Of a stretch of 64,000 bases of DNA, positions 25,134 through 62,561 are shown in pieces; position 1 is the first letter of the stretch, and each line of letters begins with the position of its first letter. The stretch is from contig CAWCBP010000014.1 in NCBI GenBank assembly GCA_963793865.1, forward strand, positions 192,001 to 256,000, given 5' to 3'. The notes beneath the pieces were generated by a model. That model was not told the origin of the DNA. It worked only from the letters and a program-made list of their open reading frames with translations, and made no database searches. This stretch comes from an uncultured delta proteobacterium (lineage in GTDB: Bacteria; Desulfobacterota; WTBG01). Position numbers and translations under genes: made by a program.

Positions 25134-25185
25134 GCGCCCTATACCTTTTTGCGGATTGATTGTGGGGTCCTGAGCCGCAATGAAT

Positions 25186-25266
25186 TAGAACATGTTTTTT
25201 TTCTCTTGACAAGCAAAAAATAGGCATGATACAGGTAGAACATGTTCTAATTTAGAAGGATGTTTT
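25186..25266. promoter_or_regulatory. Divergent promoter with probable TetR operators
   Basis: Perfect palindrome TAGAACATGTTCTA at 25236-25249, degenerate copy TAGAACATGTTTTT at 25186-25199, TTGACA at 25206. Confidence 0.75.
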
Positions 25267-25350
25267 TACCACGCTGCCGGGATTTTTAGCGACACGTGAT
25301 CTTGACAGCAGATGACCATCCGGACACAGGCAATTTACAGGAGGAAAAAC

Positions 25351-26059: not shown

Positions 26060-26196
26060 AGGAACAGACACATTCATCGACATTTCCTCACGTTGCATGG
26101 AGGAACAGCCTTACGCCTGAGTTTATGGATAAGGTACAAGACAAGCGATCTTCCGAGAAATAACACCATACCTATGAAGGGAAAGGGTCGGTAACC

Positions 26197-28155
26197 ATGA
26201 AGCTTTTAGAACCCGGTTATATCGGTACACTCAAGGTTAAAAACCGTGTGGTTATGGCAGCAATGGGTGCCCATGGCCTGCATGAAGGTGACGCAGTCTG
26301 GGGGAAACGATATCGTGCCTACTATGGGGCACGGGCTGCCGGCGGGGTGGGCCTCATTACGACCGAGGCCACCTTTGCCACCCAGGAACTCGAACCGTTC
26401 TCCCGGGGACTGTTTAACGTGGCGTCAGACAAGCATCTGGATTCCATGCGACTGCTTGCCAATACCCTCCATTTCTATGGCTGTAAGCTTTCAATTCAGC
26501 TGACCGCCGGCTTCGGCCGAGTTGTTCCCCCGCCGGTGGTACCTGAAGGTGTGCTGCCTGTTTCGGCCTCGGTTAACACCCACTATTCACCGGTCATGCA
26601 TCTCGATCCGGACGCCATGACCAGGGAGATAACCACTGAGGAGGCATCAGCCCTTGCCCAGGCCTTCGGCTATGCCGCGATGCGCTGCCGCGAAGGCGGA
26701 GCAGACTGCGTCGAGCTGCATGGTCATGAGGGTTATTTACTGGACCAGTTTATGACCCCCCTCTGGAACCGGCGTGACGACCGCTATGGCGGCTCGCGTG
26801 AGAAAAGACTCAACCTGGCCCGGGAAGCGATAGCGGCCATTAAGCGTGATGCCGGTCAGGATTTTCCCGTTATCTACCGCTTTGGCATTACCCATCACCT
26901 CGAAGGCGGAAGAGACGAGGAAGAAGGTCTCTGGATTGCCCGGGAGCTGGAAAACATGGGGGTTGATGCGCTTCATGTCGATGCCGGCTGTTACGAGACA
27001 CACTGGTGGCCCCATCCTCCCCAGTATTTCCCGCCCGGCTGCATGGTGGATATCGCTGAAAAGGTTAAGAAGGTCACCTCGCTGCCGGTTATTGCCGTTG
27101 GCAGGCTCCATCATCCGGAAACAGCCGAAAGGGCACTGGCGGAAGGCAAGGCCGACTTTATTGCCATCGGCAGGGGACTGTTATCCGAGCCTGACTGGGT
27201 CAATAAAATTGCGGACGGGAAGACCGATGAGCTGATTCCCTGTTTAGGGTGTCACGAAGGGTGCAAGTGGCAGATGATTGTCGGACAGCCGACAAGTTGT
27301 GCCATAAATCCTTCCTGCGGCCATGAAATCGAGTGGGCACTTACCCCTCTTGCCGAGAAAAGGTCTCTTCTGGTGGTCGGCGGCGGTCCGGCCGGGATTG
27401 AGGCGGCACGGGTTGGCGCAGCGCGCGGGTTTGATGTTACGCTCTGGGAAGCTTCAGACCGGCTGGGCGGAAATCTCTGGCCTGCGGCACAACCGGATTT
27501 CAAGCGTGATATTTCTGATTACATACACTACCTCTCAGGACTTGTGAAGCGGTTGCCGATCAATCTCGTTCTTAATAAAAAGGCGACTGCCGAAGATGTC
27601 CGAAACTGTGGCGCAGATTATGTCGTTCTTGCGACCGGGGCACAGATGGAGAAGCCGCCTTTTGATAATGGAGCAGGGGAGAAGGTGCTCACGGTGATCC
27701 AGGTGCTGAAAGGTTTGGAACCCCGGGGCGAGAGGGTGCTTATCATGGGGGGAGGGGTGATCGGCTGTGAGACGGCCCTCTACCTGGCACGCCGGGGTAA
27801 GCAGGTTACCATCAGCACCAGGCGGGATAAAAGTGCACTGGCGGAAGATCTCTACGATCACAATAATCACGATGTGCTGCTCATGATGATAAAAGCTGCT
27901 GACATCACGGTGCTTTCAGAGGCCGTCCCCGTAAGGGTGGAGAACGATGGTGTGGTAATCAACAAAGCCGGCGCCGAAACAAAAATCCCGGTTGACAGCC
28001 TTGTGTTTTCCGGTCGGATGATACCGGAAAATGGGCTTGGCAAATCTCTTGCGAACATGCATAATGTTTTCAGCGTTGGCGACTGCGTAAACCCGGAAAG
28101 AATTATGGAAGCTGTTTGGGCGGCTTTTAAGACGGTGAGAGAAATCGAACCGTAA
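26197..28155 (+). CDS. NADH:flavin oxidoreductase (OYE / enoate reductase-type with FeS and FAD domains)
   Basis: ELHGHEGYLLDQF, CLGCHEGC...CAINP, two GxGxxG motifs. Confidence 0.92.
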   Translation: MKLLEPGYIGTLKVKNRVVMAAMGAHGLHEGDAVWGKRYRAYYGARAAGGVGLITTEATFATQELEPFSRGLFNVASDKHLDSMRLLANTLHFYGCKLSIQLTAGFGRVVPPPVVPEGVLPVSASVNTHYSPVMHLDPDAMTREITTEEASALAQAFGYAAMRCREGGADCVELHGHEGYLLDQFMTPLWNRRDDRYGGSREKRLNLAREAIAAIKRDAGQDFPVIYRFGITHHLEGGRDEEEGLWIARELENMGVDALHVDAGCYETHWWPHPPQYFPPGCMVDIAEKVKKVTSLPVIAVGRLHHPETAERALAEGKADFIAIGRGLLSEPDWVNKIADGKTDELIPCLGCHEGCKWQMIVGQPTSCAINPSCGHEIEWALTPLAEKRSLLVVGGGPAGIEAARVGAARGFDVTLWEASDRLGGNLWPAAQPDFKRDISDYIHYLSGLVKRLPINLVLNKKATAEDVRNCGADYVVLATGAQMEKPPFDNGAGEKVLTVIQVLKGLEPRGERVLIMGGGVIGCETALYLARRGKQVTISTRRDKSALAEDLYDHNNHDVLLMMIKAADITVLSEAVPVRVENDGVVINKAGAETKIPVDSLVFSGRMIPENGLGKSLANMHNVFSVGDCVNPERIMEAVWAAFKTVREIEP

Positions 28156-43576: not shown

Positions 43577-43580
43577 TGCA

Positions 43581-44814: not shown

Positions 44815-44832
44815 GGATATGCCTCCTGATGC

Positions 44833-47095: not shown

Positions 47096-47146
47096 TTGAC
47101 AGATATATTTTTATATTCTAGTATTCCGGAATCGAAATATCCGGAA
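47096..47146 (+). promoter_or_regulatory. Sigma70 promoter with an overlapping inverted-repeat operator
   Basis: TTGACA(47096)-17 nt-TAGTAT(47119), then TTCCGGA-N9-TCCGGAA. Confidence 0.75.
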
Positions 47147-47173
47147 CTGAACTAAAGAGAAAGAGAGGGTATC

Positions 47174-47890
47174 ATGGACAAGAAGGCGGTTGAGCGGGCA
47201 TTGAAAGAGGACCTGGGAGTCAAAAAGGAACTCATTGCGCTGAAGCCCTTAAAAGCGCTGCCGAAGGATATTGACGCATATGAAGGGGTGGCCGCGCCGG
47301 GACTGTGCGCCCAGATCGGCGAGGTGCTTAAGAGCGGGAGCATGTTTTACACCACCCGGGAGAACCACCAGTGCTATGAGGGCTTGATCGCGACCGGGGT
47401 GTGCGAGGTTTCACGCGAGGAATACCGCAAGGCGGTTGAGAGCTTCATTGATGACTTCCCCTACCACAAGGATGTCCCCACTGCCATGAGCTTTTATGAA
47501 ACCTGCATCAACGAGATAAAGCCGCCCAAGGTGGAAAACAGCTGCCTGGTGGTGGGTCCCTTGAGCAAAGTCGATGATCCCGACCTCGTCCTCATATTCT
47601 GCAATCCCAAACAGGCGGATATCCTCATACGCATCCAGGCCTACCTGGGAGACCTGGTTAAAGGATACGGGGGCAGCGGCGGTTGTCTGTTTACCATCCG
47701 TCACGCATTTCAGAGCCGGCAGCCGAGCTTTTCCACCAGCGATCTTTCTTGGAGGATGTTTGTGGGGCTCAATGAGAACGAGCTGACCGTGACCTATCCC
47801 TATGAGCAGCTCGCGCGGATAGCACCCCACATCAAGCAGACCGCGGATTATGTCAACAGCTTTTCCTCCATGTTTGACAACCTCGGGTAG
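47174..47890 (+). CDS. DUF169 family Cys-containing protein
   Basis: LCAQI, HQCYEG, VVGPL....DPDLVLIFCNP.Q, GGC, R...G....ELTVTYP pattern. Confidence 0.7.
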   Translation: MDKKAVERALKEDLGVKKELIALKPLKALPKDIDAYEGVAAPGLCAQIGEVLKSGSMFYTTRENHQCYEGLIATGVCEVSREEYRKAVESFIDDFPYHKDVPTAMSFYETCINEIKPPKVENSCLVVGPLSKVDDPDLVLIFCNPKQADILIRIQAYLGDLVKGYGGSGGCLFTIRHAFQSRQPSFSTSDLSWRMFVGLNENELTVTYPYEQLARIAPHIKQTADYVNSFSSMFDNLG

Positions 47891-47967
47891 GCGCGCAGTA
47901 ATGTGCGATGCATTCGCGGCGTAAGGCCGCTCCTACCGTCAATTAACCTGTCCGGCGGGGAAAACAT

Positions 47968-49221
47968 ATGCCCCTCAAGTGTTACGAGCACTGCTGCTCC
48001 TCATGCATAGCCCTGGCCAATCTGGGTAAGATAGAAGGAGTGATCCCCATACTCCATGGCCCCCAGGCCTGCGCCTTCGGCAACCAGATGGGTTCCATGT
48101 TCTGCAGGCCGTCGCGGCTGCTCACCGTCGGGACCATGCTTAAGAAGAGCGAGGTGATCTTCGGTGGGGAGGAGAACCTCAAACAGCAGATCATCAATGT
48201 CTACCGCCAGTATAAACCCAGGATTATCGTCATCATCAGCACCTGTGTCCCCCAGCTCATCGGGGAGGACGTGAAGGGCGTCATCACCGAGCTGCAGGAG
48301 CAGATTCCTGAATTGAAGGTGACGTACTGCGAGACAGGATTCAATCATCCCCGGTCCACCCCCATGGGGAATGATGTTTCCTGGAAGGCCATCGTTGACG
48401 TTCTCGAGACGCAGGAGATGGTGAAAAACTCGGTAGGGCTGCTGGGGCGCGCGGGACAGGACGCGGACAGCCTGGGAACGCTCACCGCGCCCCTCCGGGA
48501 AGCGGGCATTACCACCTACGCCTTTCCCGCCGGCCACCTTGACGAGATGGCCGGGATCGTTAAGGCTGAATATCTCTGTCCCATTCAGCTGGTTCCCTAT
48601 CTCACCTGCAGGCGCTTGAGCGAGCGGTTCGGTTCGGTGGTAAAGTTTTTTGAGATTCCGGCGGGCATTGAAGGCACATCCCGTTTCCTGCGGGGTGTGG
48701 CGGAGCTCACCGGCAATCAGCAGCTCCCGGGGATCATTGACCGCGAGGAGGCACGGGTGCTTCCCCGCTTGCAAAAGATCCAGGCGCGCTTCAGGGAAGA
48801 GCCGGTCAGGGCCCTGCTGGTTACCGGGCCGTCCAATGAGATGTCCATTGGAAAAATCCTTGCCGAGTTCGGGGCCGAGGTAATCATCGTTCCCGCCATG
48901 CGCAACGCCTTCGCCCGTCAGGAGCAAAATATCCTTCGTGACCGCTACGGGTCCCGCATCACCTTTCATGAAGCTGACTTTGACACGGTGGCACAGCTGA
49001 CCGATGTGTATAAACCGGATGTGGTCTTTGCCGATTTTCAGGGGCGGGTTGAGCTGGTGCACCGGCTTGTCCCCTGCCTCATCAATGAAAATTACTTGAA
49101 TGAGTACGGGTACGACTATGCCATCGACTTTGGCGAGCATTTTTTTGAAAACCTCAAGATGCCGGTTTTCAGGGAGTGGCAGGATTTGATGGATCGCTAC
49201 GGGGAGGGCAACTATGCCTGA
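47968..49221 (+). CDS. Nitrogenase component 1-type oxidoreductase, alpha-like (BchN/BchY-like)
   Basis: CCSSC..HGPQAC..VIFGGEENL..ISTCVPQLIGED. Confidence 0.85.
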   Translation: MPLKCYEHCCSSCIALANLGKIEGVIPILHGPQACAFGNQMGSMFCRPSRLLTVGTMLKKSEVIFGGEENLKQQIINVYRQYKPRIIVIISTCVPQLIGEDVKGVITELQEQIPELKVTYCETGFNHPRSTPMGNDVSWKAIVDVLETQEMVKNSVGLLGRAGQDADSLGTLTAPLREAGITTYAFPAGHLDEMAGIVKAEYLCPIQLVPYLTCRRLSERFGSVVKFFEIPAGIEGTSRFLRGVAELTGNQQLPGIIDREEARVLPRLQKIQARFREEPVRALLVTGPSNEMSIGKILAEFGAEVIIVPAMRNAFARQEQNILRDRYGSRITFHEADFDTVAQLTDVYKPDVVFADFQGRVELVHRLVPCLINENYLNEYGYDYAIDFGEHFFENLKMPVFREWQDLMDRYGEGNYA

Positions 49222-50962
49222 TGGTTCAGCGGGCGGTCAGCGGCGCGAGACGTTTTCAGCCGCCTCAAAGATGAAGGTGAAGGAGATTCATAAGCCCTCA
49301 TCTTTTGAGGGAGCGGTATGGGCCATGCAGGGCATAAGGGACATCCGCCTGATTTTTCACGCGCCGCCGGGATGCTACATGATGCAGCACATGTACTCCC
49401 TCTGTAATGAGTGGCATCCAGATTTTTACAGCACGCTTCTCTCGTACGGAAACGTGATGCAGGGGACAGAGGCGCAGCTGGAGAAGATCCTCGAAAAGGC
49501 GGCGGCGGAAAACCCCGCTGCGATTGTGGTGATCACCTCTCCGGTGGTGGAAATTACCGGTGATGATGTGGCGGGCGTTGCGAAAAAAGTGGGTTATGAC
49601 AGGACCGTGGTCATCCGCCCGGCCCTCGGAGGGTCGCTTGCGGAGGGAAAAGAGCAGGCCCTGCTTGTCCTCGCTGAGCTTATGGACCCGGCGGCGGAGA
49701 AGATGGAGAAAACGGTCAACCTTATCGGCCCGACCTACAACACCTTCAACTGGAGGGCTGATGTTTGTGAGCTGCGAAGAATGCTTTCGCATATCGGCGT
49801 GTCCGTCAATGCGGTGTTAAGCGCGGATTGTACGGTCGACCAGATTTGCAGGGCGCCGGGGGCGCAGCTCAACATCTGTGTCTATCCTTATGACTGCGGA
49901 GAGGCGCTTGCCCGGAGCATGCAGGAACGCTTTGGGCTGCCCTATGTTGCAGCTCGCGTTCCCATAGGATACCGGGAGTCGGCAGCCTGGCTGGAGGAGA
50001 TCGCCCGCTTTTTTCATATTGATGCGGGGGCCTATCTTGCCCGGGAGATGAAAAATGGTTTGGACCTGTTTACCTCGCTTCTGGTTTCCAACACCTTCTT
50101 TGAATCGAGCGTGGCGCTCTCCACCGACAACTGCGACAGCTACAGCGTGGGACTGAGCGGCTTCCTGCAGCGGGAGCTGGGCATGCACGTGTGCTTTGCC
50201 GCGGTATCCACTGAGAAGGCGGGGGAGACAGTTGCCGGGGCATGTGAGCGGGTTTTGCTCAATTCAAGTATCGATGAGAAAAAGAACCTGCTGCTCCAAA
50301 CCTCTCCCACCATTATTCTGGGCAATTATTATGATCTCAAACTGTCAACCGACCTGGGCTTTAAAAATTTTCTTTTCGCAGACATCCCCCTCATTGGCTA
50401 TATCTTCTCCGAGACCACCCCTTTCATGGGCTTTATGGGAGCGCAGCACCTTATCCAGGCAATCGGCAATGAGATCTATACCAAGATTTTTATCGAAACC
50501 AAGGGAGAGCTGGAAGGGGCCATCTCATCGGGCGAGGTGCACTGGGAACTGGATGCGGAACAGGCGTTGGGCAGGATGGCCCAGCTGCTTCCCCATTTTG
50601 TCCGCTCGATTGCCATCAAAAAGCTGCACCAGGTAGCTGATGGGATCGCCGTTGAGCGGGGGACAAGCGTGACCCTTGCCATTTTGCGGGAGGTGGCTGA
50701 ACGATATACGCCCACCCGGTTCAAGGCAAAGTTCTCAACTCTTTTTACGGATATGGAAGGCACAACCCGTCAGCCGGCCGGGGTGGATGATCCGGAGTTT
50801 ACCATGGAATGGGACGCGCCGGCACAAGAGATGCTGGAGATGGTACCCGCTGAATTCAGGCAGCAGGCGGTTGCGGGTACAGAGGCGTATGCGCGGGAAC
50901 ATGGCTACGGTGCCGTTTCAGTCCGGGTGGTGGAGGAGTATCGGAAGGAACTGGGCTTTTAG
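49214..50962 (+). CDS. Nitrogenase component 1-type oxidoreductase, beta-like (BchB/BchZ-like) with two C-terminal PCP_red domains
   Basis: HAPPGC, EITGDD, VNLIGP, PFMGFMGA; WELDAEQAL..LPHFVR and WDAPAQEML..VPAEFR...EAYARE. Confidence 0.85.
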   Translation: MPDGSAGGQRRETFSAASKMKVKEIHKPSSFEGAVWAMQGIRDIRLIFHAPPGCYMMQHMYSLCNEWHPDFYSTLLSYGNVMQGTEAQLEKILEKAAAENPAAIVVITSPVVEITGDDVAGVAKKVGYDRTVVIRPALGGSLAEGKEQALLVLAELMDPAAEKMEKTVNLIGPTYNTFNWRADVCELRRMLSHIGVSVNAVLSADCTVDQICRAPGAQLNICVYPYDCGEALARSMQERFGLPYVAARVPIGYRESAAWLEEIARFFHIDAGAYLAREMKNGLDLFTSLLVSNTFFESSVALSTDNCDSYSVGLSGFLQRELGMHVCFAAVSTEKAGETVAGACERVLLNSSIDEKKNLLLQTSPTIILGNYYDLKLSTDLGFKNFLFADIPLIGYIFSETTPFMGFMGAQHLIQAIGNEIYTKIFIETKGELEGAISSGEVHWELDAEQALGRMAQLLPHFVRSIAIKKLHQVADGIAVERGTSVTLAILREVAERYTPTRFKAKFSTLFTDMEGTTRQPAGVDDPEFTMEWDAPAQEMLEMVPAEFRQQAVAGTEAYAREHGYGAVSVRVVEEYRKELGF

Positions 50963-51085
50963 ATTCGTGCGCGTAGAACCGGTAGGAGCGGCTTTCAGCC
51001 GCGAATGCATCGCGCATGAATGCGCTCCTACAGAAATTTTACATATCTTTGGCAAACGTTTCAGCGAACCCAGGGAGAGGGGCCA

Positions 51086-51556
51086 ATGACCAGGGCAGGC
51101 AAAGGCGGGAGGGCAACCGGCGAGATTAATGACCGGATGCTGGTGGTGAAGGACTTTATCGATGAGCTTTACAACAAGACCGTTTTTCGGAACGGGAGAG
51201 CCGCCAATTATGATTTAACCCCTGCTCAAATAAAGGCATTCTTTGCTTTCAAAGAGGATGACCGCGCGTATCCCATCGGCGAACTGGGCAGGAATGCCCG
51301 GGTCAAGAGCTCTACCATCACCGACATGATTGACCGGCTGGAAAAAGAGGGCATTGCCGAACGACTGAAAGACCACGGGGACCGGCGGGTGGTAAAAGTG
51401 CGGCTCACCACCAAGGGCAGGGAAATCAAGAATCAGTTTGTCGTAAGGATGCGATCCGGCATGGAGCAGACATTCTCAAAATTGAGCGAAGGGGAGAAAA
51501 AGGCCCTGCTTGATCACCTCAAGGGGGCATACGAGATATTGAAGAGAATAAAGTAG
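51086..51556 (+). CDS. MarR family transcriptional regulator
   Basis: LTPAQ...IGEL.....VKSSTITDMIDRLEKEG.AER....DRRVVKVRLTTKG. Confidence 0.92.
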   Translation: MTRAGKGGRATGEINDRMLVVKDFIDELYNKTVFRNGRAANYDLTPAQIKAFFAFKEDDRAYPIGELGRNARVKSSTITDMIDRLEKEGIAERLKDHGDRRVVKVRLTTKGREIKNQFVVRMRSGMEQTFSKLSEGEKKALLDHLKGAYEILKRIK

Positions 51557-52287: not shown

Positions 52288-54222
52288 ATGATGTTGCACG
52301 GGATGCGCTGGTTGTTAAGCAATCGGATGGATGCCGTTCCTGCGGGGAGTCACGTTTTGAACAATGTTACTGAACGGTACTGGGCATTTACCAATCCCCT
52401 GGCGTGTATAATTCTCATCTTAATCGCCTGGCGCCAGGGAGAGACCGCACCCGGCGGCATGTATCTCGCACTTGCTGCTGTCGTGCTTTCCGGCTATCCC
52501 ATCGTCAGAAATTCCGTGGTATCCACCATAACCAACAGGAAGTTGAATGCCGAGGTGCTGGTTACCTGCGCGCTCATTGCCTCCATCTGGGTGGGCGAAT
52601 ATCTGGCAGCGGCCATGGTGGTGCTCATGATGAACATCGGCGAGCTTCTGGAGGATGCCACCATAGCCAGGACCGGCGAGGCGGTTCGTGCGCTGATGGA
52701 GCTGAAATCGGATACTGCCCGGGTTGTAAGAGATGGCCGCGAGATGGAATTGGATATCGGTGCGGTCTGCATCGGTGATGTGGTGCTGGTCAGGGCTGGT
52801 GAAACCATCCCCATAGACGGCAGGATAAAAGAGGGGCGGGGTGAAGTGAATCAGGCTCCCATCACGGGTGAATCTGCCTTGATTGCCAAGGGCCCGGGAG
52901 ATGAAGTTTTCGGCGGAACATTGAACCAGCTGGGGGTATTCAGGATTGAAGTGACCCGGGTTGCTGCGGAAACGGTTCTGTCAAAAATCGTGGATTTGGT
53001 TCGCCGCGCGCAAGCGGCAAAACCACCCATTGAAAGGATAGCTGATCGTTTTGCCGGCTGGTTTACTCCAACCATGCTGGGCCTGGCATTTTTGGTCTGG
53101 TTCGTTACCGGAGAGGTGCTTCGTGCGGTAACCGTCCTGGTGGTTGCGTGTCCCTGCGCGCTGGTAATCGCCACACCGACGGCCGTGGTTGCGGGTATCG
53201 GAAATGCGGCACGCCGGGGTATCCTTATCAAAGGAGGGGCGGTGCTTGAAATCATAGGCAAGCTCACCACATTTGTATTTGATAAAACCGGAACGCTCAC
53301 CTACGGCACCCCGGCAGTGCGCCTTGTGCGCAGTTTCGGAAAGGCGTCCGAGCATGAGGTTCTCAGCCTTGCCGGCACGGCGGAGAAACATTCGGAACAC
53401 CCTCTGGCGGAAGCCATTTTAAGGTACTGCCGCGAAAAAGATGCGGAGCCGTCTGAGCCGGAGGAGACGAATGTGGTGGTGGGAAGGGGTGTTGTAGCCA
53501 GAAAAAACGGCACAGAGATTATCGTCGGCAATGAACGCCTTGTGGAAGAAAAAGGCATGCCTCTGACTGACGAGGCGAAGACCTTTTTGAGTGATATGGC
53601 TGACGCGGGCTCAACCGGCGTGCTGGTGGGGCATGGATCGGTGCTTGTCGGCGGTATCGGCATCGCGGATGCGGTCAGGGCGGATGTCAGGCAGTCTATT
53701 GAAAATATAAGGCGCATGGGCATCAGGAAGGTGCTGATGCTGACAGGGGACACGCGGACCGTTGCCGAGGTGATTGGCGCAGGGGTTGGACTCGATGCAA
53801 TAGTGGCCGATCTTCTTCCCGAAGAGAAGCTCCGCTACATAAAAAAATTGAGGGAGCAGGGCGATGTAGTAGCCATGGTAGGAGATGGAATCAATGATGC
53901 GCCTGCGCTGGTCGAAGCAGACGTGGGTATTGCCATGGGGGTTATGGGTACGGATGCAGCCATCGAAGCGGCAGACATAGCCCTTACCGGCGACGATCTC
54001 ACCAAGGCATCAGAGGCCATCGCCCTCTCCCGGAAAACGGTCAGCATAATCAAGCAGAGCATTTTCATGTCGATTGCAATAAACGGGATTGCCCTCATCC
54101 TTGCCTCAGCCGGTGAGATCGGTCCAGTTGTCGGTGCGATCGTTCACAATGTTGGCTCGGTAGTGGTGGTGGGTAATTCGTCGCGCCTTATAGGATATCG
54201 ATTTGATAAAGCGCTGCATTGA
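52288..54222 (+). CDS. Heavy-metal-translocating P1B-type ATPase
   Basis: ITGES, CPC, DKTGTLT, SEHP, MLTGD, GDGINDAP. Confidence 0.96.
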   Translation: MMLHGMRWLLSNRMDAVPAGSHVLNNVTERYWAFTNPLACIILILIAWRQGETAPGGMYLALAAVVLSGYPIVRNSVVSTITNRKLNAEVLVTCALIASIWVGEYLAAAMVVLMMNIGELLEDATIARTGEAVRALMELKSDTARVVRDGREMELDIGAVCIGDVVLVRAGETIPIDGRIKEGRGEVNQAPITGESALIAKGPGDEVFGGTLNQLGVFRIEVTRVAAETVLSKIVDLVRRAQAAKPPIERIADRFAGWFTPTMLGLAFLVWFVTGEVLRAVTVLVVACPCALVIATPTAVVAGIGNAARRGILIKGGAVLEIIGKLTTFVFDKTGTLTYGTPAVRLVRSFGKASEHEVLSLAGTAEKHSEHPLAEAILRYCREKDAEPSEPEETNVVVGRGVVARKNGTEIIVGNERLVEEKGMPLTDEAKTFLSDMADAGSTGVLVGHGSVLVGGIGIADAVRADVRQSIENIRRMGIRKVLMLTGDTRTVAEVIGAGVGLDAIVADLLPEEKLRYIKKLREQGDVVAMVGDGINDAPALVEADVGIAMGVMGTDAAIEAADIALTGDDLTKASEAIALSRKTVSIIKQSIFMSIAINGIALILASAGEIGPVVGAIVHNVGSVVVVGNSSRLIGYRFDKALH

Positions 54223-54242: not shown

Positions 54243-55202
54243 ATGGAGATTGATTTTTCGCAGGCGGGTTTGTGGACATTGATGGTTGGCACCTTTACGC
54301 TGGCGGCCACCCACACCGTATCGCCGGATCACTGGTTTCCCTTTGTCATGGTGGGCAGGGCAAACAAGTGGAAGGTTTCCTGGGTGCTGGGACTTGCTCT
54401 GCTTGCCGGCATCGGTCACGTGGGAACCTCGGTTTTCATCGGGATGGTGGGGGTGTTTGCGGAAAAGGGTGTCTCAAAAAATATCGCCCTGTTTCTGGAA
54501 AAGGCCACCCCCATGCTGCTCATCGTTTTCGGTTTCGGATATGCCGCGTATGCCCTTTACAAACAACGTGTGGGATCCCTGGGGCACTCCCACGGCATAC
54601 CCATTATCAATAAGTGGCTCGGTATCAATGCCCATGCTTATGATCTGCCGGGACAAACCCACGGCCATGCCCAGGATGTGTGTCTTACAATCGGCGGGAA
54701 GTTTGTTATTTGTCTTCATAAACTGGATATAGTGACGTACGTCGTTCATGATGATCACATGCACGGCTATGACGCCACCGCCGAGGCGGATCATGAACAT
54801 AAGCACTTTCACGACGAGAAACTGCATGAGCACCGGCACAAACACAGCGTCAAAGGGATCGACGGGTTCGTCCACAGCCATGGAGATGAAAACCCCCAGG
54901 AGGGGGTGCGTGACCTGAAGGATAAAAGGGCCGGATGGGGATTGGTGGCGATTCTGGGCTTGACCCCCTGTATTGCCCTGCTGCCCCTGACCTTTGCTGC
55001 GATTAAGTACGGCACCGGGGCAGTGATACTGGTCAATATAGCATTTACCATTGGCACGCTGGGAACCATTGTCCTGTTTACCTGGCTGGGATACCTGGGG
55101 CTTTCCTGGCTTAAACTTGACTTTTTTGAGAAGTACGGTGACGTAATCGCCGGCACCATCATCGGTCTGCTGGGACTTGCCACGAAGGTGTTTGAGCTAT
55201 AG
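54243..55202 (+). CDS. Nickel/cobalt transporter (NiCoT/RcnA/UreH-like)
   Basis: HTVSPDHW (HX4DH), GIGHV, central His-rich loop, LTPC. Confidence 0.75.
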   Translation: MEIDFSQAGLWTLMVGTFTLAATHTVSPDHWFPFVMVGRANKWKVSWVLGLALLAGIGHVGTSVFIGMVGVFAEKGVSKNIALFLEKATPMLLIVFGFGYAAYALYKQRVGSLGHSHGIPIINKWLGINAHAYDLPGQTHGHAQDVCLTIGGKFVICLHKLDIVTYVVHDDHMHGYDATAEADHEHKHFHDEKLHEHRHKHSVKGIDGFVHSHGDENPQEGVRDLKDKRAGWGLVAILGLTPCIALLPLTFAAIKYGTGAVILVNIAFTIGTLGTIVLFTWLGYLGLSWLKLDFFEKYGDVIAGTIIGLLGLATKVFEL

Positions 55203-55232: not shown

Positions 55233-56069
55233 ATGAGTGATATCATTACCGACATAGGATTTGATTCCAAAAGTCTATGGCAGGCCAAGGGATTTGAGCC
55301 GCACTCGTTTCCGGAGAGCACCTGGCCGCATTTAAGGGAGCTGCAATTGAAACGGCTCACCAGCGCAGAAGGCGAAGATTTGACCCCGGTGCAGGAGATG
55401 ATCAGGCGTCCCATGTGTGAAGGCACCTTTCGCCACTTTCATAATCAAAAGATAGAAAAGCTGGCCCTGATGTGGGTGCTTATCTCCAAAAGCATTGCAG
55501 GAGGAAGCTGGGTGGGATGGCCCACTGATGACTACGATTTTCCCGCCCTCATCATTGCCTGGGAGGAATCGAAGAAACGGCTGCACATCATCATCGATCT
55601 CATGCCTATAGCGGACTGCGTGGAATACGAGTGGTACCGGGAAAAGTACCTGGATGGCATAGAACCCGTATACAATGAATACAAGGATCTCATCGGGCCG
55701 AACTCGACCTACCGCTGGTTCCGTGCCATGCAGGGTCCCTACCACATCTTTGATGGGCCGGGTGAAAAACGGGACAGGTCGCTGCAGTGTGAAATTGAGT
55801 ATATCAAACAATGGGTCAGGGTGGTACAGGAGGCGGAGCCGGTAAAGGATGAAGAGTATAAACAATACGTGATCCGGCGGAAGAAGATCCTTCAGACACA
55901 GCTGCGGCAGCGGGACCCGCTGGGATCGGTGCTGATGCGCACCCTTGGAGAGGAACTGGGGAAGAAAACCATCTTGGGTACACATAGAGGGGGAATTTCA
56001 AAGTCCAAAGATCAAATTTCAAAACAAGTTCAAATGACCAAAATGCAAATGTATACAAATCCTCTTTGA
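55233..56069 (+). CDS. Ferredoxin-dependent bilin reductase / RCCR-like protein; true stop may be TAG at 55985-55987
   Basis: WPTDDYDFPAL, IDLMPIADC...YREKY, WFRAM.GPY, RDPLGSVLMRTLG; paralogue of 57310 and 25351. Confidence 0.7.
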   Translation: MSDIITDIGFDSKSLWQAKGFEPHSFPESTWPHLRELQLKRLTSAEGEDLTPVQEMIRRPMCEGTFRHFHNQKIEKLALMWVLISKSIAGGSWVGWPTDDYDFPALIIAWEESKKRLHIIIDLMPIADCVEYEWYREKYLDGIEPVYNEYKDLIGPNSTYRWFRAMQGPYHIFDGPGEKRDRSLQCEIEYIKQWVRVVQEAEPVKDEEYKQYVIRRKKILQTQLRQRDPLGSVLMRTLGEELGKKTILGTHRGGISKSKDQISKQVQMTKMQMYTNPL

Positions 56070-56157
56070 GGCAGTGTGCATATCTTGGGGAGCAGGAGCG
56101 TTTTGACTATTTGATATTTGGACTTTGGATTTGCTTTGGATTTGGTGCTTTGAAATT
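55994..56157. repeat. Imperfect AT-rich inverted repeat element
   Basis: aatttcaaagtccaaagatcaaat... versus ...atttggactttggattt...ctttgaaatt. Confidence 0.65.
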
Positions 56158-56244
56158 TGGATTTGCACCACAATGATTACTGTGCGCGATTTACACTTAG
56201 CTCAAACGCGGATTGAATCTAAAGAACGGGAAAGGAGGAACGCT

Positions 56245-56649
56245 ATGGCTTCGATGCTTGAAATAATGAAACGTGGTGCTGAGCTGGTCAATGCGGATGA
56301 GGAGTTCAAGGCCCAGATGGTTGAGCTTGACGGGGATATCATCTTCTGGCGTTTTGAAGATGACCAGCCCGCGGTTACCACCCGGCTGGACAAAGGAGTG
56401 ATAGTGGTTGAGGGAGGCGAGCATCCCGATTCCCAGATCGGGATGAAGCTCAAGGCCAAGGTGCTCCTGGACGTGATTGACAATTCCCTCGAGGCCAAGA
56501 TGATGTACACCTACACGGAGTTAGTCAAAGGCGACATTGAGCTGGCCCGTCACCATGTGTTTGCACTGGTTCCCTACATCTACGGCATGCAGGACTACTA
56601 TGATTCCGACGCAGCATTCAAGAAGATGGTGGTTGAAAAAAAGGGGTGA
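56245..56649 (+). CDS. SCP2-like (sterol/lipid carrier fold) protein
   Basis: AGGAGG RBS; strand pattern ...KGVIVVEGGEHPDSQIGMKL..LLDVID..L....VKGDI resembles SCP2. Confidence 0.5.
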   Translation: MASMLEIMKRGAELVNADEEFKAQMVELDGDIIFWRFEDDQPAVTTRLDKGVIVVEGGEHPDSQIGMKLKAKVLLDVIDNSLEAKMMYTYTELVKGDIELARHHVFALVPYIYGMQDYYDSDAAFKKMVVEKKG

Positions 56650-56656
56650 GTAAGCG

Positions 56657-56890
56657 ATGACCGTACATGAGCAGGAACACGCTATCGTAATAGATGAGGA
56701 GAAGTGCATCGGCTGCGGGATATGTGTGGACTTCTGTAATGTTGATGCCATTGCAGTTAACCAGGAGCGGGGGGTGCTGGAAGTCGTTGCCCTGGAAGAC
56801 TGCATTGAATGCCACAGCTGCCAGCAGAACTGCTCCGAGGGCGCCATCATGGTGTTTCCTCAGGTGGAAGATTCCCTGAAAAATCTGTAG
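56657..56890 (+). CDS. 2[4Fe-4S] ferredoxin
   Basis: CIGCGICVDFC and CIECHSCQQNC. Confidence 0.92.
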   Translation: MTVHEQEHAIVIDEEKCIGCGICVDFCNVDAIAVNQERGVLEVVALEDCIECHSCQQNCSEGAIMVFPQVEDSLKNL

Positions 56891-56988: not shown

Positions 56989-57225
56989 GTGAGTGAAATT
57001 CAATTTATTCTGGATCAGGAAAAGTGCATAGGTGCTGACCGATGTGAAGGGGTGTGCGCCCGCATCTGTCCCCCTGATATCATCGAGTATGCCGATGAGG
57101 GCGGCAAAAAAGTGCCCTTCGTTACCGACATGGAGCTCTGCATGAAGGATCACGGCTGCCAGAACAGCTGTCCCGCGGGGGCCATTACCATACTTCCTCC
57201 GCAGGGGGAAGGAAGGGGGTTTTGA
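56989..57225 (+). CDS. Atypical dicluster ferredoxin
   Basis: CIGADRCEGVCARICP and CMKDHGCQNSCP. Confidence 0.85.
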   Translation: MSEIQFILDQEKCIGADRCEGVCARICPPDIIEYADEGGKKVPFVTDMELCMKDHGCQNSCPAGAITILPPQGEGRGF

Positions 57226-57309: not shown

Positions 57310-58089
57310 ATGCCTGAATATCATCTGGAAAAAGAAGTTGGCTTTAAGTGTGACACCTGGCCGGCCAAGAATGTCCCCAATATCCGGCCATTCCCGGAGG
57401 AGTGCTGGGAAATTCTCCGGACCCTTGATCTCCGGCCATTGAGAGGTGAATACCAGGGCTACAATATGGATCTGCTGCTGGAGAATCTAGATTCTCCCAT
57501 GGCCAAAGGGGCCGTTCGGGTTTTTGAATCAGATAAGATCGAGAAGGTTTGCATCTGGTGGCAGGTGCTCTCAGGCCGGTCGCTTTCTGGGGCTGTCATC
57601 GGTTTCCCGCGGGATGATTATGATTTTCCGGTCATGCTGATTGACTGGGACGAAGGCCGCGGTCCCGGGCATGGGATGGTTGATCACATGCCGCTCTGCG
57701 ATATCGTGCTCAATGAAGAGTACCGCTTGAAATATCTTGATAAACTGGACAACACCTTCCGTGAGTACTATGACATTATCGGGCCTCCCTCCCTGCACGT
57801 CTGGTTTCGGACCCTGTCCGGCCCCTACTACAGTTTCTTCAGAACGCAGGCAGGGGGAACCCCGGAATATCGGCAGCGCATTTTAAATCTTCCGCTCAGG
57901 TATTTGGAGAAGTGGGCTGAAACGGTGAAAGAGGCACAGCCCATCACCGATCCGGCCCACCGGGAGTATTGCATTAAGAGAAAACGGGTCCTCCAGGAGT
58001 GGCTGTTTGTCCGCGATCCGGTGACATCGGTCATGCTGCGTTGCTATGGAAAGGAAATCGGTTCGCTGGTGATGAAGGGACTCTCTTAA
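57310..58089 (+). CDS. Ferredoxin-dependent bilin reductase / RCCR-like protein
   Basis: FPRDDYDFPVM, VDHMPLCD...YRLKY, WFRTLSGPY, RDPVTSVMLRCYG. Confidence 0.7.
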   Translation: MPEYHLEKEVGFKCDTWPAKNVPNIRPFPEECWEILRTLDLRPLRGEYQGYNMDLLLENLDSPMAKGAVRVFESDKIEKVCIWWQVLSGRSLSGAVIGFPRDDYDFPVMLIDWDEGRGPGHGMVDHMPLCDIVLNEEYRLKYLDKLDNTFREYYDIIGPPSLHVWFRTLSGPYYSFFRTQAGGTPEYRQRILNLPLRYLEKWAETVKEAQPITDPAHREYCIKRKRVLQEWLFVRDPVTSVMLRCYGKEIGSLVMKGLS

Positions 58090-58404: not shown

Positions 58405-58566
58405 GGGCAGTAACCGATAAGCATATATTATATGGAGGGACGCACTCCGTTGCGTCCGCTAATTTATTCGGCCACGACAGAGCGTGGCCCTCCAGAACCT
58501 TATTAAGCAGTAGGAGCGGCTTCAGCTGCGATGTATCGCGCAGGAAGCGGAATTAAACAAGGGCGT

Positions 58567-60000
58567 ATGAAGGTACTCCTTATCCAGCCACCCATGTATC
58601 ATCAAAAGGTTCAGTTATCCCCCAATTTGGGACTGGCCTCCATTGCCGCCGTTCTTGAGCGGGATGGTGTCCGGGTGGGAGTGCTTGATGCCGCCGCGGA
58701 AGATCTCTCCTATACGGATATTTTGGAACGGGTCCGGGCCTTTAAGCCCCGCGTCGTGGGCGCCGGGGGGCAAACGCCGGTGGCACCCCGATCCATGGCC
58801 ATTTTTAGCCGCATCAAACAGGAGATAAGCCGGGACATTACAACCATTGCCGGCGGTCCGCACTTCAGCTTTACCGACCATGAATCACTTCAGGAGTGCC
58901 GGGAACTTGACATCGTGGTGCGCGGTGAAGGAGAGGCGACCATCAGTCATTTGTGCAAAGCACTCGAAACGGGAGAATCACTCAACAATGTACAAGGCAT
59001 AACCTTCCGTGACCACAATGGATCCATCGTGCGCAATGCCGACCGTGAGCCGATTGCCGATATTGACTCCCTGCCATTCCCTGCCTGGCACCTGTTTCCG
59101 CTGGACAAGTACCACTGGGTGGGAAACCGGCTGCTTGCCGTTTCCTCATCCCGGGGATGCCCGTTCAGATGCCCCTATTGCATAACCTGGAAAGTCCATT
59201 CGGGAGTCCGCCATAGAAGGCCTGCCAAAATAGTTGAAGAAATGGTATGGGTTAAAAAGAATTTTAACCACGATACCTTCTTCTTCCAGGATGATGCCTC
59301 GTTTCTGGTGCGTGAGCAGATGGAGGGGTTTCTGGACGCACTGGAAGCCTGCGGAGAGAAGCTGTACTGGTACTATGAAACCAGGGAGGATGTTTTTCTC
59401 GGTTACCGGGATCTCTGGAAGAGGATGAAGCACAACGGCCTGTTTAAAATTGTCTTCGGGCTTGAGACCCCGGACCCTGCAATGCGGGAGAGGTTCGGCA
59501 AAAAGGCCTTTGACGCGCGGGCGGTTGAGCAGATGATGGATACGCTTGAGCACGAGCTGGACATAATGGTGTCCGTGTATCTCCTGTTCGGGCTGCCTGA
59601 GGATACGGAAGAGTCTTTGAAGGAGATACTTGATTATGGTAAGCATCTCTATCCCGCCCACTGCTCATTTATCGTCGGCTCCATGGCAACCCCCTTTCCC
59701 GGCACTGATATGTATGAGGACCTGAAGCGGCGGGATATGATAACCAGCTATAACTGGAAAGACTACGGGTTCGGCACCTCGGTTATCAGGACCAGCATCG
59801 CGCCGGAAAAACTTCAGGAGGTATTTAAGGGCTTTTGGATAAAAACCTATGTGCGGCCCAGGGCATTTTTACGCCAGATTCAATTCCTGTTATCCGGCAA
59901 CCGCTTTCGCCGGGCAATGGCAAAACAATATGTAAAGATGGCCGTGGAAATGATATCGGATGTCAAGAAGATGAGCGGTGAAAAGGATGAGGGTTTCTAG
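58567..60000 (+). CDS. B12-binding radical SAM protein (class B; BchE/methyltransferase-like)
   Basis: PNLGLASIAA, AGGPH, VRGEGE, SSRGCPFRCPYC, TPFPGT. Confidence 0.92.
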   Translation: MKVLLIQPPMYHQKVQLSPNLGLASIAAVLERDGVRVGVLDAAAEDLSYTDILERVRAFKPRVVGAGGQTPVAPRSMAIFSRIKQEISRDITTIAGGPHFSFTDHESLQECRELDIVVRGEGEATISHLCKALETGESLNNVQGITFRDHNGSIVRNADREPIADIDSLPFPAWHLFPLDKYHWVGNRLLAVSSSRGCPFRCPYCITWKVHSGVRHRRPAKIVEEMVWVKKNFNHDTFFFQDDASFLVREQMEGFLDALEACGEKLYWYYETREDVFLGYRDLWKRMKHNGLFKIVFGLETPDPAMRERFGKKAFDARAVEQMMDTLEHELDIMVSVYLLFGLPEDTEESLKEILDYGKHLYPAHCSFIVGSMATPFPGTDMYEDLKRRDMITSYNWKDYGFGTSVIRTSIAPEKLQEVFKGFWIKTYVRPRAFLRQIQFLLSGNRFRRAMAKQYVKMAVEMISDVKKMSGEKDEGF

Positions 60001-60112: not shown

Positions 60113-61279
60113 ATGTCGATGACCAATTACCTTTTTACCTCTGAATCAGTGACAGAGGGGCATCCGGACAAGGTTGCCGATCAAATATCTGATTCCATTC
60201 TTGACGCCATTCTTGCCAAGGATAAAAAGGCGCACGTTGCCTGTGAAACCATGGTTACAACCGGCATGGCCATTGTTGCCGGTGAAATCACCACCAACTG
60301 CTATGTACACATACCCGATATTGTCAGGCAAACCATAAAGGACATAGGATACAATGATTCAAGCATGGGCTTTGACTGGGAAACCTGCGCGGTTATCACC
60401 TCCATTGATACCCAGTCACCGGATATCGCCATGGGTGTCAATCCCCGGAAAGGTAAAAAGCAGGGTGCCGGGGACCAGGGACTGATGTTCGGCTACTCCT
60501 GCGCGGAGACCCCGGAGCTGATGCCCATGCCCATCAGCTATGCCAATAAGCTGGCGCGACGACTGGCTGAAGTCCGAAAGAAAGGCATCCTTGATTTTTT
60601 GAGGCCCGACGGGAAGTCACAGGTTACCGTGGAGTATCTTGACGGTCATCCCAAGCGGGTTGATACCGTGGTGATCGCGGCCCAGCACAACCCCACGGTC
60701 AAGGACAAGGTTTTGCGCGAAGGCATTATAGAGGAAGTGATAAAGCAGGTGATACCGGCAAAAATGCTGGACGGTAAGACCAAGTACCATATTAATTCTA
60801 CCGGCCGGTTTGTGCAGGGCGGTCCCAAGGCTGACTGCGGCCTGACCGGGAGAAAGCTTATCTGTGATACCTACGGCGGACAGGGGAGTCACGGCGGCGG
60901 TTCCTTTTCCGGGAAAGATCCTTCCAAGGTGGACCGGTCGGCGTCCTATATGGCCCGCTATGTCGCAAAAAATATTATTGCCGCCGGCCTGGCCAGACGG
61001 TGCGAGGTACAGCTTTCCTACAGCATCGGCGTTCCTGAACCGGTTTCGGTGATGATCGACACCTCCAACACCAGCAAGATTCCGCCCGACGAAATTGCGC
61101 GGCTGGTTATAAAATATTTCCGTTTGACCCCGGCGGAGATGATAAGTTACCTTGATCTCCTGCGGCCGATCTACAAAAAGACCGCCACCTACGGGCATTT
61201 CGGAAGAACGGAACCTGAGTTTACCTGGGAGCGGACGGACATGGCTGATAAACTTCGCAGGGCAGCCGGTCTCAAGTAA
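60113..61279 (+). CDS. metK: S-adenosylmethionine synthetase
   Basis: [28 protein letters not shown]. Confidence 0.98.
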
Positions 61280-61304
61280 TGATACGGCTTGAAAGGGGCA
61301 AGGA

Positions 61305-62561
61305 ATGAAATACCACATTAAGGATATGGCTCTGGCAAAGAAAGGTATGCTGCGGATCGAGTGGGCGAACCAGAGCATGCCGGTTTTGAACCTGGTTAAA
61401 GAACGGTTTAAGAAGGAAAAGCCGCTGCGGGGGATAAAGCTTGCCGCCTGCCTGCACGTGACAACTGAAACCGCAAGCCTTATGGAAACATTGCAGGCGG
61501 GAGGCGCGCAACTGGCCCTCTGCGCTTCAAACCCCTTGAGCACACAGGATGACGTGGCTGCGGCCCTGGTCAAGTGCCACAGGATTGCCGTGTTCTCCAT
61601 CAAGGGGGAAAACCGCAAAACCTATTATGATCACATTAACGCGGCGCTTGACAGCAAGCCCCATATTACCATGGATGACGGGGCGGACCTGGTGTCTACC
61701 ATCCACGCGAAGCGTCAGCAACTGGTGCAGGGAATTATCGGCGGAACCGAGGAGACAACCACCGGTGTCATCAGGTTGCGTGATATGGCGCGCAAGAAGG
61801 TGCTGCGTTTCCCCGTCATATCGGTAAACGATGCCTATACCAAGCATCTGTTCGATAACCGCTACGGAACCGGACAGAGCACCATTGACGGCATGATACG
61901 GGCGACAAACAGGCTGGTTGCGGGCAGCACCTTTGTGGTGTGCGGCTACGGATGGTGCGGACGCGGTCTGGCTATGAGGGCCAAGGGGATGGGGGCAAAG
62001 GTTGTCGTAACCGAGGTTGACCATCTCCGCGCGTTGGAGGCAACCATGGATGGATATCAGGTGATGCCCCTGGCCGAGGCATCGAAAATCGGTGATTTTT
62101 TCTGCACGCTCACCGGTGATAAGCACGTCATAGACACAAAACATTTTCTCTCCATGAAGGAAGGGGCCATTGTGGCCAATTCCGGTCATTTTAATGTCGA
62201 GCTGAATCTTGAGGGACTTGCCAAAATAACCAAATGCAGCAGGGCGATCCGGGATTTTGTCCAGGAGCACACCCTGAAGAACGGGAAACGAATCTATGTG
62301 CTCGCGGAGGGAAGACTGGTTAATCTTGCCGCAGCGGAAGGACATCCCTCAAGTGTCATGGATATGAGCTTTGCCAACCAGGCCCTGTCCGCCGAATACC
62401 TGGTGAAAAAGGGGAGGGGTTTGAAGAAAGAGGTGTATCCGGTGCCGGCCGACATAGATGAAATGATTGCCAGACTGAAACTGAAATCGATGGGCATTCG
62501 CATTGACACCCTGACTGCCGAACAAAAGGAGTACCTGGCCTCCTGGGAGGCAGGGACGTAA
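61305..62561 (+). CDS. ahcY: Adenosylhomocysteinase
   Basis: [40 protein letters not shown]. Confidence 0.98.

Follow-up and report, generated by a model that had tools for sequence, protein, structure and literature searches.

A nitrogenase-like gene pair without a reductase gene of its own: a probable accessory module of a tetrapyrrole-type system with paired Fe proteins

How is a nitrogenase-like catalytic pair supplied with electrons when no Fe-protein gene lies beside it, and what might it reduce? The question is raised by a locus of an uncultured delta proteobacterium (assembly GCA_963793865.1, contig CAWCBP010000014.1, here C14) in which two adjacent genes, N1 and B1, encode an N/D-like and a B/K-like subunit and follow a gene for a DUF169 protein. 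We analyzed the 64,000-nucleotide stretch of C14 that holds them (contig positions 192,001 to 256,000, forward strand; hereafter the window, to which coordinates given without a contig or locus refer), the rest of the genome and related loci; G, C and L numbers are our labels for genomes, contigs and loci. We describe N1B1 as an orphan catalytic module, of clade 1, within an uncharacterised nitrogenase-like system that is modular, probably acts on a tetrapyrrole and has a paired H1/H2 reductase. Judged from sequence comparison, gene counts and linkage, it is probably the catalytic part of a two-component reductase that is nitrogenase-like and ATP-dependent, an accessory module served in trans by the shared Fe proteins H1 and H2. 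Features of the window are collected in Table 1.

The gene pair is real and intact; an initial annotation made from the window alone had called it a nitrogenase-like N/B pair. N1 and B1 overlap by 8 nt, with the ATG of B1 lying within ATGCCTGA, and both products reach the gathering score of PF00148, the profile of the nitrogenase component-1 superfamily. N1 falls below the equivalog cut-offs of BchN (TIGR01279, 66.1 bits vs. 419.95) and BchY (TIGR02015, 29.4 vs. 425.15), and its best matches among both NCBIfam models and Protein Data Bank (PDB) sequences are to NifE. For B1 the best NCBIfam matches are BchB (TIGR01278, 165.8 bits vs. a cut-off of 490.35) and BchZ (TIGR02014, 132.5 vs. 529), and the best PDB sequence matches are 3AEK-type (DPOR) chains (E ~1e-17 to 1e-18).

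Table 1. Features of the window discussed in the text, with window coordinates
Feature	Position	Strand	Basis or remark
DUF169 protein, 238 aa	47174..47890	+	PF02596 82.7 bits (cut-off 27); first gene of unit
Promoter-like site TTGACA-17-TAGTAT, ~50 nt upstream of DUF169	47096..47124	+	consensus match only; 6 sites vs. 3.1 expected in region
Left arm of 52-nt inverted repeat, copy of dispersed REP-like element	47887..47938	.	core motif counts
N1, N/D-like subunit, 417 aa	47968..49221	+	Oxidored_nitro PF00148, 189.2 bits (cut-off 28.6)
B1, B/K-like subunit, 582 aa	49214..50962	+	Oxidored_nitro PF00148, 217.5 bits (cut-off 28.6), and PCP_red PF08369
Divergent first PCP_red-like copy, B1 residues 436-505	50519..50728	+	hhalign to copy 2; topology in model
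Canonical PCP_red, B1 residues 526-582	50789..50959	+	PF08369 42 bits in B1 (34.2 alone; cut-off 32.5); 2KRU fit
Right arm of inverted repeat, 87% complementary to left arm	50980..51031	.	repeat comparison
MarR-family regulator MarR1	51020..51556	+	after B1 or DUF169 in related loci
u226, conserved protein of no known family, 226 aa	51597..52277	+	conserved in L018, L054, L056, L091
Heavy-metal P1B-type ATPase	52288..54222	+	TIGR01525 586.5 bits (cut-off 346)
u319, faint RcnA (Ni/Co efflux) likeness	54243..55202	+	E 8e-5, far below cut-off; conserved in L018, L058, L059, L084
FDBR-like protein a	55233..56069	+	PF05996 34.6 bits
u174, conserved protein of no known family	56125..56649	+	conserved in related loci
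Small ferredoxin-like open reading frame, 77 aa, two Cys-rich motifs	56657..56890	+	read from translation; matches in L018, L084
Small ferredoxin-like open reading frame, 78 aa, degenerate motifs	56989..57225	+	read from translation
FDBR-like protein b	57310..58089	+	PF05996 28.3 bits (below cut-off 31); 85-90% identical orthologues in L018, L084
2x[4Fe-4S] ferredoxin, 92 aa	58126..58404	+	family search
B12-binding radical S-adenosylmethionine (SAM) enzyme, best match BchE	58531..60000	+	TIGR02026 207.7 bits (cut-off 481); directly upstream of N1 in L018, L019
SAM synthetase and S-adenosylhomocysteine hydrolase (SAM recycling)	60113..62561	+	family search
Second tetrapyrrole-type islet: TetR (-), FDBR-like c, old yellow enzyme (OYE)/FAD reductase	24471..28155	.	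homologues downstream of type-2 loci L031, L038
FDBR-like protein c	25415-26059	+	PF05996 67.4 bits
OYE/FAD reductase, 652 aa	26197-28155	+	best NCBIfam: bilirubin reductase long form, BaiCD, mycofactocin OYE, at about half the cut-off

The pattern of cysteines points to a metal cluster between the two subunits. In BchB, Asp36 is a ligand of the inter-subunit [4Fe-4S] cluster and Asp274 is a proton donor, and the roles of the cluster ligands in DPOR and COR are general knowledge in the literature. In B1 the corresponding motif reads IFHAPPGC, and its Cys54 occupies the alignment column of Asp36 of BchB (wild-type solved chains and a Tateyamaria BchB) and of Cys35 of BchZ. The initial annotation had already seen a Cys in place of the Asp ligand, and this Cys is invariant, together with H49, P51, P52 and G53, in all 26 aligned family members. 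In place of Asp274, B1 has Ser, and three further members of the family have F, G or L (one 8-sequence alignment). On the N side, Cys10, Cys35 and Cys93 of N1 align with cluster cysteines of BchN, BchY, NifD and NifE, and all 28 N sequences share C10, C35, C46 and C93. The three aligned cysteines of N1 are thus predicted cluster ligands and, joined by Cys54 of B1, would make up an inter-subunit [4Fe-4S] site with cysteine ligands only, like that of COR. The B protein of L036 (Gammaproteobacteria/Chromatiales) has Tyr, not Cys, at the ligand position (HSAPGY), and that clade may accordingly have a different cluster site.

The missing reductase gene was found on another contig. A PF00142 profile search of the whole genome, of the kind that the initial annotation had proposed, gave no NifH-family match on C14, which confirms that the window holds no NifH-like gene. 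It gave two strong matches in tandem on C6 (8311-9123 and 9223-10041; 293.6 and 311.8 bits), where the gene order is MarR-H1-H2-N2-B2 and the H pair lies directly upstream of a paralogous N/B pair. The suggestion that the reductase is encoded elsewhere was therefore correct, and the arrangement recurs in all genomes checked. N1 and N2 are 58% identical over 412 residues, B1 and B2 52% over 373, and H1 and H2 55% over 275. Both H proteins score best against the NifH and CfbC models and lower against BchL (211-214 bits vs. a cut-off of 345) and BchX (177-178 vs. 331), and lie below all four equivalog cut-offs. The P-loop and both cluster cysteines are kept in 22 H1 and 22 H2 sequences. In the tree, H1 and H2 are sister clades, each monophyletic (SH-aLRT 90 and 97) and each mirroring the branching of the other, within a family supported at 98; 13 fixed class differences set them apart. 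In the DPKADS motif, Asp is replaced by Ser in 16 of 21 H1 sequences and kept in 22 of 22 H2 sequences, as in BchL and BchX.

Relatives of B1 are many (about 575-590 aa) and fall into two tiers of identity, 59-93% and about 46-53%. They were surveyed in a scan of one genome per species, which yielded 33 loci mapped by tblastn. Trees of both subunits resolve three clades, namely clade 1, which contains the window's pair (B, 100/100; N, 97/95), clade 2 (100/97; 96/100) and clade 3 (100/100 in both), within a supported family (100/100; 98/98). In a sample of 401 genomes of the phylum, each at least 80% complete, the family is present in 8, all within the window's class. It occurs in 4 of 11 genomes of the window's order and is absent from a same-genus genome at 94% completeness.

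Linkage to the Fe-protein genes differs between clades. In clades 2 and 3, H1-H2 lie immediately upstream of N-B in 22 of 22 informative loci, mostly with a MarR gene before them; the hosts are labelled Thermodesulfobacteriota/'delta proteobacterium', Spirochaetota and Gammaproteobacteria/Chromatiales. The same B-based scan found 8 clade-1 loci besides the window, and at none of the 7 that are informative upstream does an H gene precede the N/B pair. The upstream gene is DUF169 in three (window, L013 and L030), a B12-radical-SAM gene in two (L018, L019) and neither in two (L014, L017). In L014, L015 and L017 the order is N1-B1-MarR-N3-B3, i.e., a third pair follows. A clade-2 B gene and an H pair are nevertheless present in all five other clade-1 genomes (G004, G008, G044, G115, G292), and both loci, clade-1 and H-linked, were found in 6 of the 8 assemblies of the contig scan. 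One metagenome contig, L072, has the order H1-H2-N-B-FDBR-like-DUF169-short-chain dehydrogenase-aldehyde:ferredoxin oxidoreductase with N (97/95) and B (100/100) in clade 1; a clade-1 pair can thus sit in the operon slot directly behind H1-H2. At L035 (12453-18573), H1-H2-N3-B3-MarR is followed by another N gene, which shares 83% identity with the first and has no B partner, then by two CbiX/ferrochelatase-like genes, FeoB and an FDBR-like gene.

From these counts and linkages we infer that N1B1, with no reductase gene of its own, would belong to a set of up to three interchangeable N/B modules (clades 1 to 3) that draw on a common reductase module, the tandem H1/H2, here on C6. A ferredoxin would reduce H1/H2, which would hand single electrons to N1B1 with ATP hydrolysis, and the substrate, most likely a cyclic tetrapyrrole, would be reduced at the N/B interface. 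H1 and H2 probably act together, possibly as a heterodimer. That the reductase is a joint one is suggested by the number of H genes. Among the 11 genomes searched with PF00142 (G000, G001, G004, G006, G008, G044, G115, G177, G265, G292 and G341), each has exactly two matches (E<=1e-20), in tandem and beside an N/B pair, and the number of B-family matches is one in G001, G006, G177, G265 and G341, two in G000, G004, G008 and G115, and three in G044 and G292. A division of labour, in which H1 and H2 are separate homodimers like BchL and BchX, one serving N2B2 and the other N1B1, would suit the present genome, which has two H genes and two N/B pairs, as well as the old and distinct H1 and H2 clades with their fixed differences and the Ser of most H1 proteins. 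It does not suit the other genomes, where the H number does not track the N/B number: the three-pair genomes have no third H, and the one-pair genomes keep both, among them G001, a complete 3.49-Mb Chromatiales chromosome. Since one H per N/B pair fits these genomes badly, a joint H1/H2 reductase is the simpler account, and we consider the division of labour quite unlikely.

It is also conceivable that N1B1 does no catalysis and serves as a scaffold, carrier or sensor for a tetrapyrrole or a cluster, a relation like that of NifEN to NifDK. The NifE matches of N1 and the position of the pair as an accessory copy beside a main operon would agree with such a role. We regard it as most improbable, given that the four predicted ligands are conserved across clade 1 in the alignments above, that the three clades are equally well conserved and that the clade-1 pair of L072 stands directly behind H1-H2.

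The initial annotation had entertained a second electron route, from the cluster ferredoxins or from the DUF169 protein, and the place of DUF169 in the locus bears on this. DUF169 does lead the unit, as claimed, because the preceding plus-strand open reading frame (ORF; 46712-47155) is antisense to the N-terminal OB-fold part of the divergent aspS and is probably spurious. Four cysteines of the protein (Cys45, Cys67, Cys77 and Cys171) are invariant in its subfamily, and it may be a metal or Fe-S protein. Its model (pLDDT 92) found nothing in the PDB with Foldseek at E<=0.001 and a best Z of 5.2 in a wide VIA-align comparison, no solved structure matched it by sequence at E<=1, and a protein atlas search returned DUF169 clusters only. 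Literature using the word DUF169 yielded no paper that also uses 'nitrogenase-like'.

Co-occurrence of DUF169 with the N/B clade, which had been proposed as a check, stood at the level of genomes and less so at the level of loci. Of 6 clade-1 genomes, 5 have an orthologue (at least 69% identity), vs. 0 of 5 without clade 1; these genomes are kin, with few independent events behind the counts. It adjoins N/B in G000, G004 and G008, whereas G044 and G292 have it on a separate contig. G115, despite its clade-1 pair, has no orthologue (best match 41%), and the best matches in the genomes without clade 1 are 58% in G177 and at most 41%, or none, in the rest. Adjacency was seen in only 3 of the 7 informative clade-1 loci. 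A survey from the DUF169 side covered 80 metagenome loci, counted as informative with at least 700 nt downstream: at 19 informative orthologue loci the next gene was N1 in 6, MarR1 in 2 and another gene in 11, and DUF169 relatives below 69% identity had an N/B gene in 0 of 30 loci. Other recurrent neighbours are short-chain dehydrogenases, aldehyde:ferredoxin oxidoreductases, FDBR-like proteins and alpha/beta hydrolases. The annotation's scheme would have failed if a cognate nifH-like gene were consistently linked to orthologous clusters and DUF169 were not co-conserved; the outcome was mixed, with an H pair in every genome, linkage to a clade-1 pair once (L072) and DUF169 partly co-conserved. 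DUF169 belongs to the same functional neighbourhood as N1B1 and is loosely linked to it, so no alternative electron route need be invoked. Rather than the primary electron donor, it would be an accessory to the same pathway.

An ATP-independent supply, with electrons passing to N1B1 from the ferredoxins or the Cys-rich DUF169 protein and no Fe protein involved, accordingly appears very unlikely to us. The lack of an H gene in the window, the three ferredoxin-like genes of the cluster, the four cysteines of DUF169 and its co-occurrence with clade 1 would all accommodate it. Against this, every characterised member of the superfamily is known to need an ATP-dependent Fe protein (see also a 2026 review), H1/H2 are present in each of the 11 family genomes, the clade-1 pair of G115 does without a DUF169 orthologue, most orthologue loci have neither N/B nor MarR1 as the next gene, and the FDBR-like and radical SAM enzymes themselves use ferredoxin. 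A further point for the ATP-independent supply is a 289-aa fusion of a 2x[4Fe-4S] ferredoxin with DUF169 at L022 (1573-2442), about 4 kb upstream of a type-2 locus, which hints that DUF169 proteins work with Fe-S electron carriers. At L078 (4939-5931), on a single metagenome contig, a chlorophyllase-family gene (PF07224, 190 bits) stands directly upstream of the DUF169 orthologue. As a lead this was dropped: it was seen at that one locus, the copy in the present genome (C4:80964-81770, 180 bits) lies in an unrelated context, and PF07224 is also matched in 7 of 14 control genomes.

What N1B1 may reduce is suggested by its neighbours. The window has tetrapyrrole-type content, with three FDBR-like genes, a BchE-like enzyme, three ferredoxin-like genes and SAM recycling, and the best models of its two OYE/FAD reductases include bilirubin reductase, at scores far below the cut-off. 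CbiX/ferrochelatase-like genes follow N/B modules in L014, L022, L035 and G004, and in G004 a CobN/BchH-family gene ends the operon. A BchF-like gene is present in 4 of 8 family-positive vs. 0 of 393 family-negative genomes of the phylum sample. Elsewhere in the present genome, an islet on C2 (C2:9000-28999, L136) carries genes for a YgiQ-type radical SAM protein, an FDBR-like protein, an amine-oxidase-like flavoprotein, a BchF-like hydratase (88 bits) and MarR, together with a Fer4 membrane protein, an aldehyde:ferredoxin oxidoreductase, and ferrochelatase-like and flavodoxin-like proteins. By its content, the gene set probably transforms a chlorophyll- or haem-like ring without oxygen.

We see only a slender chance that N1B1 is a genuine DPOR or COR that makes bacteriochlorophyll a. 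Such an enzyme would account for the BchB and BchZ matches of B1, for the BchE-like and BchF-like genes, and for the CobN/BchH-family (PF02514) genes in 4 of 5 other family-positive genomes. N1, B1 and H1/H2 are, however, all far below the equivalog cut-offs, B1 has Cys for the Asp36 ligand and Ser in the Asp274 column, and the N family falls outside BchN and BchY. The BchM domain (PF07109) was found in 0 of 6 family-positive genomes (this genome and five others; completeness 91-98.6%), and PF02514 had no match in the present genome (98.6% complete). With no BchM domain in these genomes and no CobN/BchH match here, canonical bacteriochlorophyll synthesis is unlikely. Similar genes have apparently been read in that way before: in a 2021 preprint (bioRxiv 10.1101/2021.03.22.436540), chlLNB, bchXYZ, bchE, bchF and bchC are annotated in a non-phototrophic class of Desulfobacterota, and the preprint itself, as far as its accessible part goes, found no reaction centres. 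Its chlLNB and bchXYZ genes may be members of the present family, read as bacteriochlorophyll synthesis. The membership tests described here argue against that reading of such genes.

The gene content gives hints both of building the ring and of breaking it down. MarR control, patchy distribution, and metal-export and bilin-reductase-like genes weakly favour breakdown or remodelling of exogenous pigments, and the chelatase-like genes fit the building of a new metallo-tetrapyrrole. A more specific scenario, to which we would give a minority share of our confidence, is oxygen-independent uptake and reductive dismantling or remodelling of exogenous chlorophyll-type or other metallo-tetrapyrroles by sediment anaerobes. 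Here the macrocycle would be dearomatised or saturated by substrate-specific N/B modules, as many as three of them, all powered by a single heterodimeric H1/H2 Fe protein; the BchF-like hydratase, the BchE-like and HemN/ChuW-like radical SAM enzymes and the FDBR-like reductases would complete the job, with chelatase-like proteins acting as (de)chelatases, the P1B ATPase exporting the metal and MarR repressors sensing the pigment. A heterodimeric H1/H2, if true, would be the first hetero-paired reductase of the nitrogenase superfamily. A term search in the texts of papers on pre-PcyA/FDBR proteins returned no mention of nitrogenase-like genes, and for anaerobic bacterial chlorophyll degradation no literature on the enzymology was found, as judged from listings. 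FDBR-like, BchE-like, BchF-like and chelatase-like genes without BchM in non-phototrophic anaerobes suggest an undescribed anaerobic tetrapyrrole pathway.

Several observations weigh against a shared H1/H2 reductase serving a reductive tetrapyrrole module, or limit it. On C6, a single additional G in a G-run interrupts B2, as compared with the continuous ORF of a 98%-identical relative, and B2 also has an in-frame TAA; partial decay of the C6 operon or indel errors in the assembly may be the cause. The genomes behind the gene counts and linkage are related and do not constitute independent samples, and the trees hold a single reference per known subfamily, all on long branches. Of the genes found near relatives, the chelatase-like and CobN-like ones suit a biosynthetic pathway as well as a degradative one. 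Finally, DUF169 may have a redox role with N1B1, considering its co-occurrence with clade 1, its four invariant cysteines and the ferredoxin fusion of L022. Fragmented genes occur in the window as well: gatB, gatA and aspS (43355-46876, minus strand) are several short ORFs in different frames, and an OYE/FAD reductase at 16365-18319 (minus strand) is split into ORFs of 420 and 235 aa. Together with the one-base insertion in B2 these suggest assembly indels or recent gene decay, and we suspect assembly indels behind the split B2 and the other fragmented genes.

The tail of B1 is a further feature that sets the family apart, a PCP_red tail being otherwise a feature of BchB. The initial annotation had counted two PCP_red domains in B1. 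The second is canonical, and the solved PCP_red domain 2KRU fits it with a Z of 9.3 and a root-mean-square deviation of 1.3 A over 54 residues. The first is not called by Pfam, which reports one copy of PF08369 only (residues 533-576), and residues 436-500 searched alone matched no family at E<=1e-5. A profile-profile comparison of the two copies with hhalign gave 62.5% probability and an E-value of 7.3e-5 over 45 columns, an AlphaFold model of the tail (pLDDT 77) has the order strand-helix-helix-strand-helix in both copies, and the same RuvBL lid segment superposes on either (Z 7.3-7.8). On the strength of the hhalign result, the shared topology and the structure fits, the tail probably consists of a canonical PCP_red domain plus a divergent, enlarged copy. 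The B proteins of L032-L034, L036 and L041 (Gammaproteobacteria/Chromatiales) are about 508 aa long and have no second copy. At L137 (G004:C42, 7549-9948, minus strand), a single 799-aa ORF with two Oxidored_nitro stretches and PCP_red is either an N-B fusion or two genes merged by an assembly error.

By its sequence relationships, the family belongs to a nitrogenase-like, Group-V-related lineage beside DPOR and COR, and it fails the membership tests of both. The annotation's view that the pair is more BchZ-like stands for the B subunit, which has the Cys ligand and whose family is sister to BchZ (100/97), with BchB outside, and does not lie inside BchZ; it does not stand for the pair, which is neither of the two enzymes. 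The N family branches outside BchN and BchY (94/84), as their sister; for both subunits these placements carry the single references and long branches noted above. A Chromatiales chromosome, examined as a source of in-genome reference sequences for BchL, BchX, BchN, BchB, BchY and BchZ, has none of these. The family resembles COR (BchX + BchYZ) in its two-component architecture with N/D-like and B/K-like subunits, in the B-side Cys and in the alignment of the three N1 cysteines with those of BchY. It differs in its scores, far below the BchZ, BchY and BchX cut-offs, in the position of the N family, in its tandem PCP_red-like tail, in having two paralogous Fe proteins vs. one BchX, in N/B modules encoded apart from the Fe-protein genes, and in non-phototrophic hosts without a detected BchM domain in the six genomes searched. 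DPOR (BchL + BchNB) shares the best B1 matches, the HAPxG motif context and the C-terminal PCP_red domain, whereas B1 has Cys54 for Asp36, Ser for Asp274 and two PCP_red-like copies vs. one, and the pair scores below the cut-offs and has no cognate BchL.

A modular layout is known from nitrogenase itself, in which NifH serves both NifDK and NifEN and the partners need not be encoded beside it. The likeness is that one Fe-protein module donates to several paralogous D/K-type partners; unlike there, the partners here are tetrapyrrole-type N/B pairs, the donor is a pair of paralogues, and the accessory partner is found in a different gene cluster on a separate contig. Between one and three catalytic modules, some of them encoded far away, appear to depend on a single reductase module, and this layout would explain 'orphan' N/B pairs such as N1B1. 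It also cautions that local gene context alone is poor ground for proposing novel electron routes. The family also adds a fixed pair of paralogous Fe proteins, which, the characterised systems all being homodimeric, raises the question of a heterodimeric reductase.

A function is established for only a few nitrogenase-like enzymes (nitrogenase, DPOR, COR, CfbCD, Mar and Isr). The 2026 review lists Groups IV-VI, describes Group VI and several Group IV clades as uncharacterised and names the functions of the remaining clades as the main challenge of the field. The Group VI NflHDK genes (Meheust et al. 2020), described from Elusimicrobia, Gracilibacteria and Myxococcales, are similar in being uncharacterised and nitrogenase-like with a predicted role in tetrapyrrole reduction, in their linkage to B12-radical-SAM genes, in the several H, D and K copies of some genomes and in a NifH clade next to Group V. 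They are unlike the present family to the extent that the accessible part of that description mentions no PCP_red tails, fixed tandem H1/H2 or FDBR-like neighbours.

The N1-B1 pair is bracketed exactly by two inverted copies of a repeat, and a mobile cassette bounded by this 52-nt inverted repeat was considered. We rejected it as the main interpretation because the repeat is a dispersed REP-like (repetitive extragenic palindromic) element: its 16-nt core motif, with at most one mismatch, has 51 copies in the genome (26 forward, 25 reverse) vs. 0 for a control pattern. In contigs of four public runs, which gave short pieces only, there is a depth spike with loose ends at 50977-51031, and in the relatives L056, L062 and L082 DUF169 is followed directly by MarR1, without N1-B1 between them. 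A further palindromic copy lies at 40395-40440. Further genes of tetrapyrrole type lie in the window outside the main cluster. A HemN-family radical SAM gene at 13965-15251 (minus strand) scores about equally as HemW, ChuW/HutW and HemN, and adjoining it (9686-11596) are genes for an amine-oxidase/protoporphyrinogen-oxidase-like flavoprotein and a PNPOx-like FMN protein.

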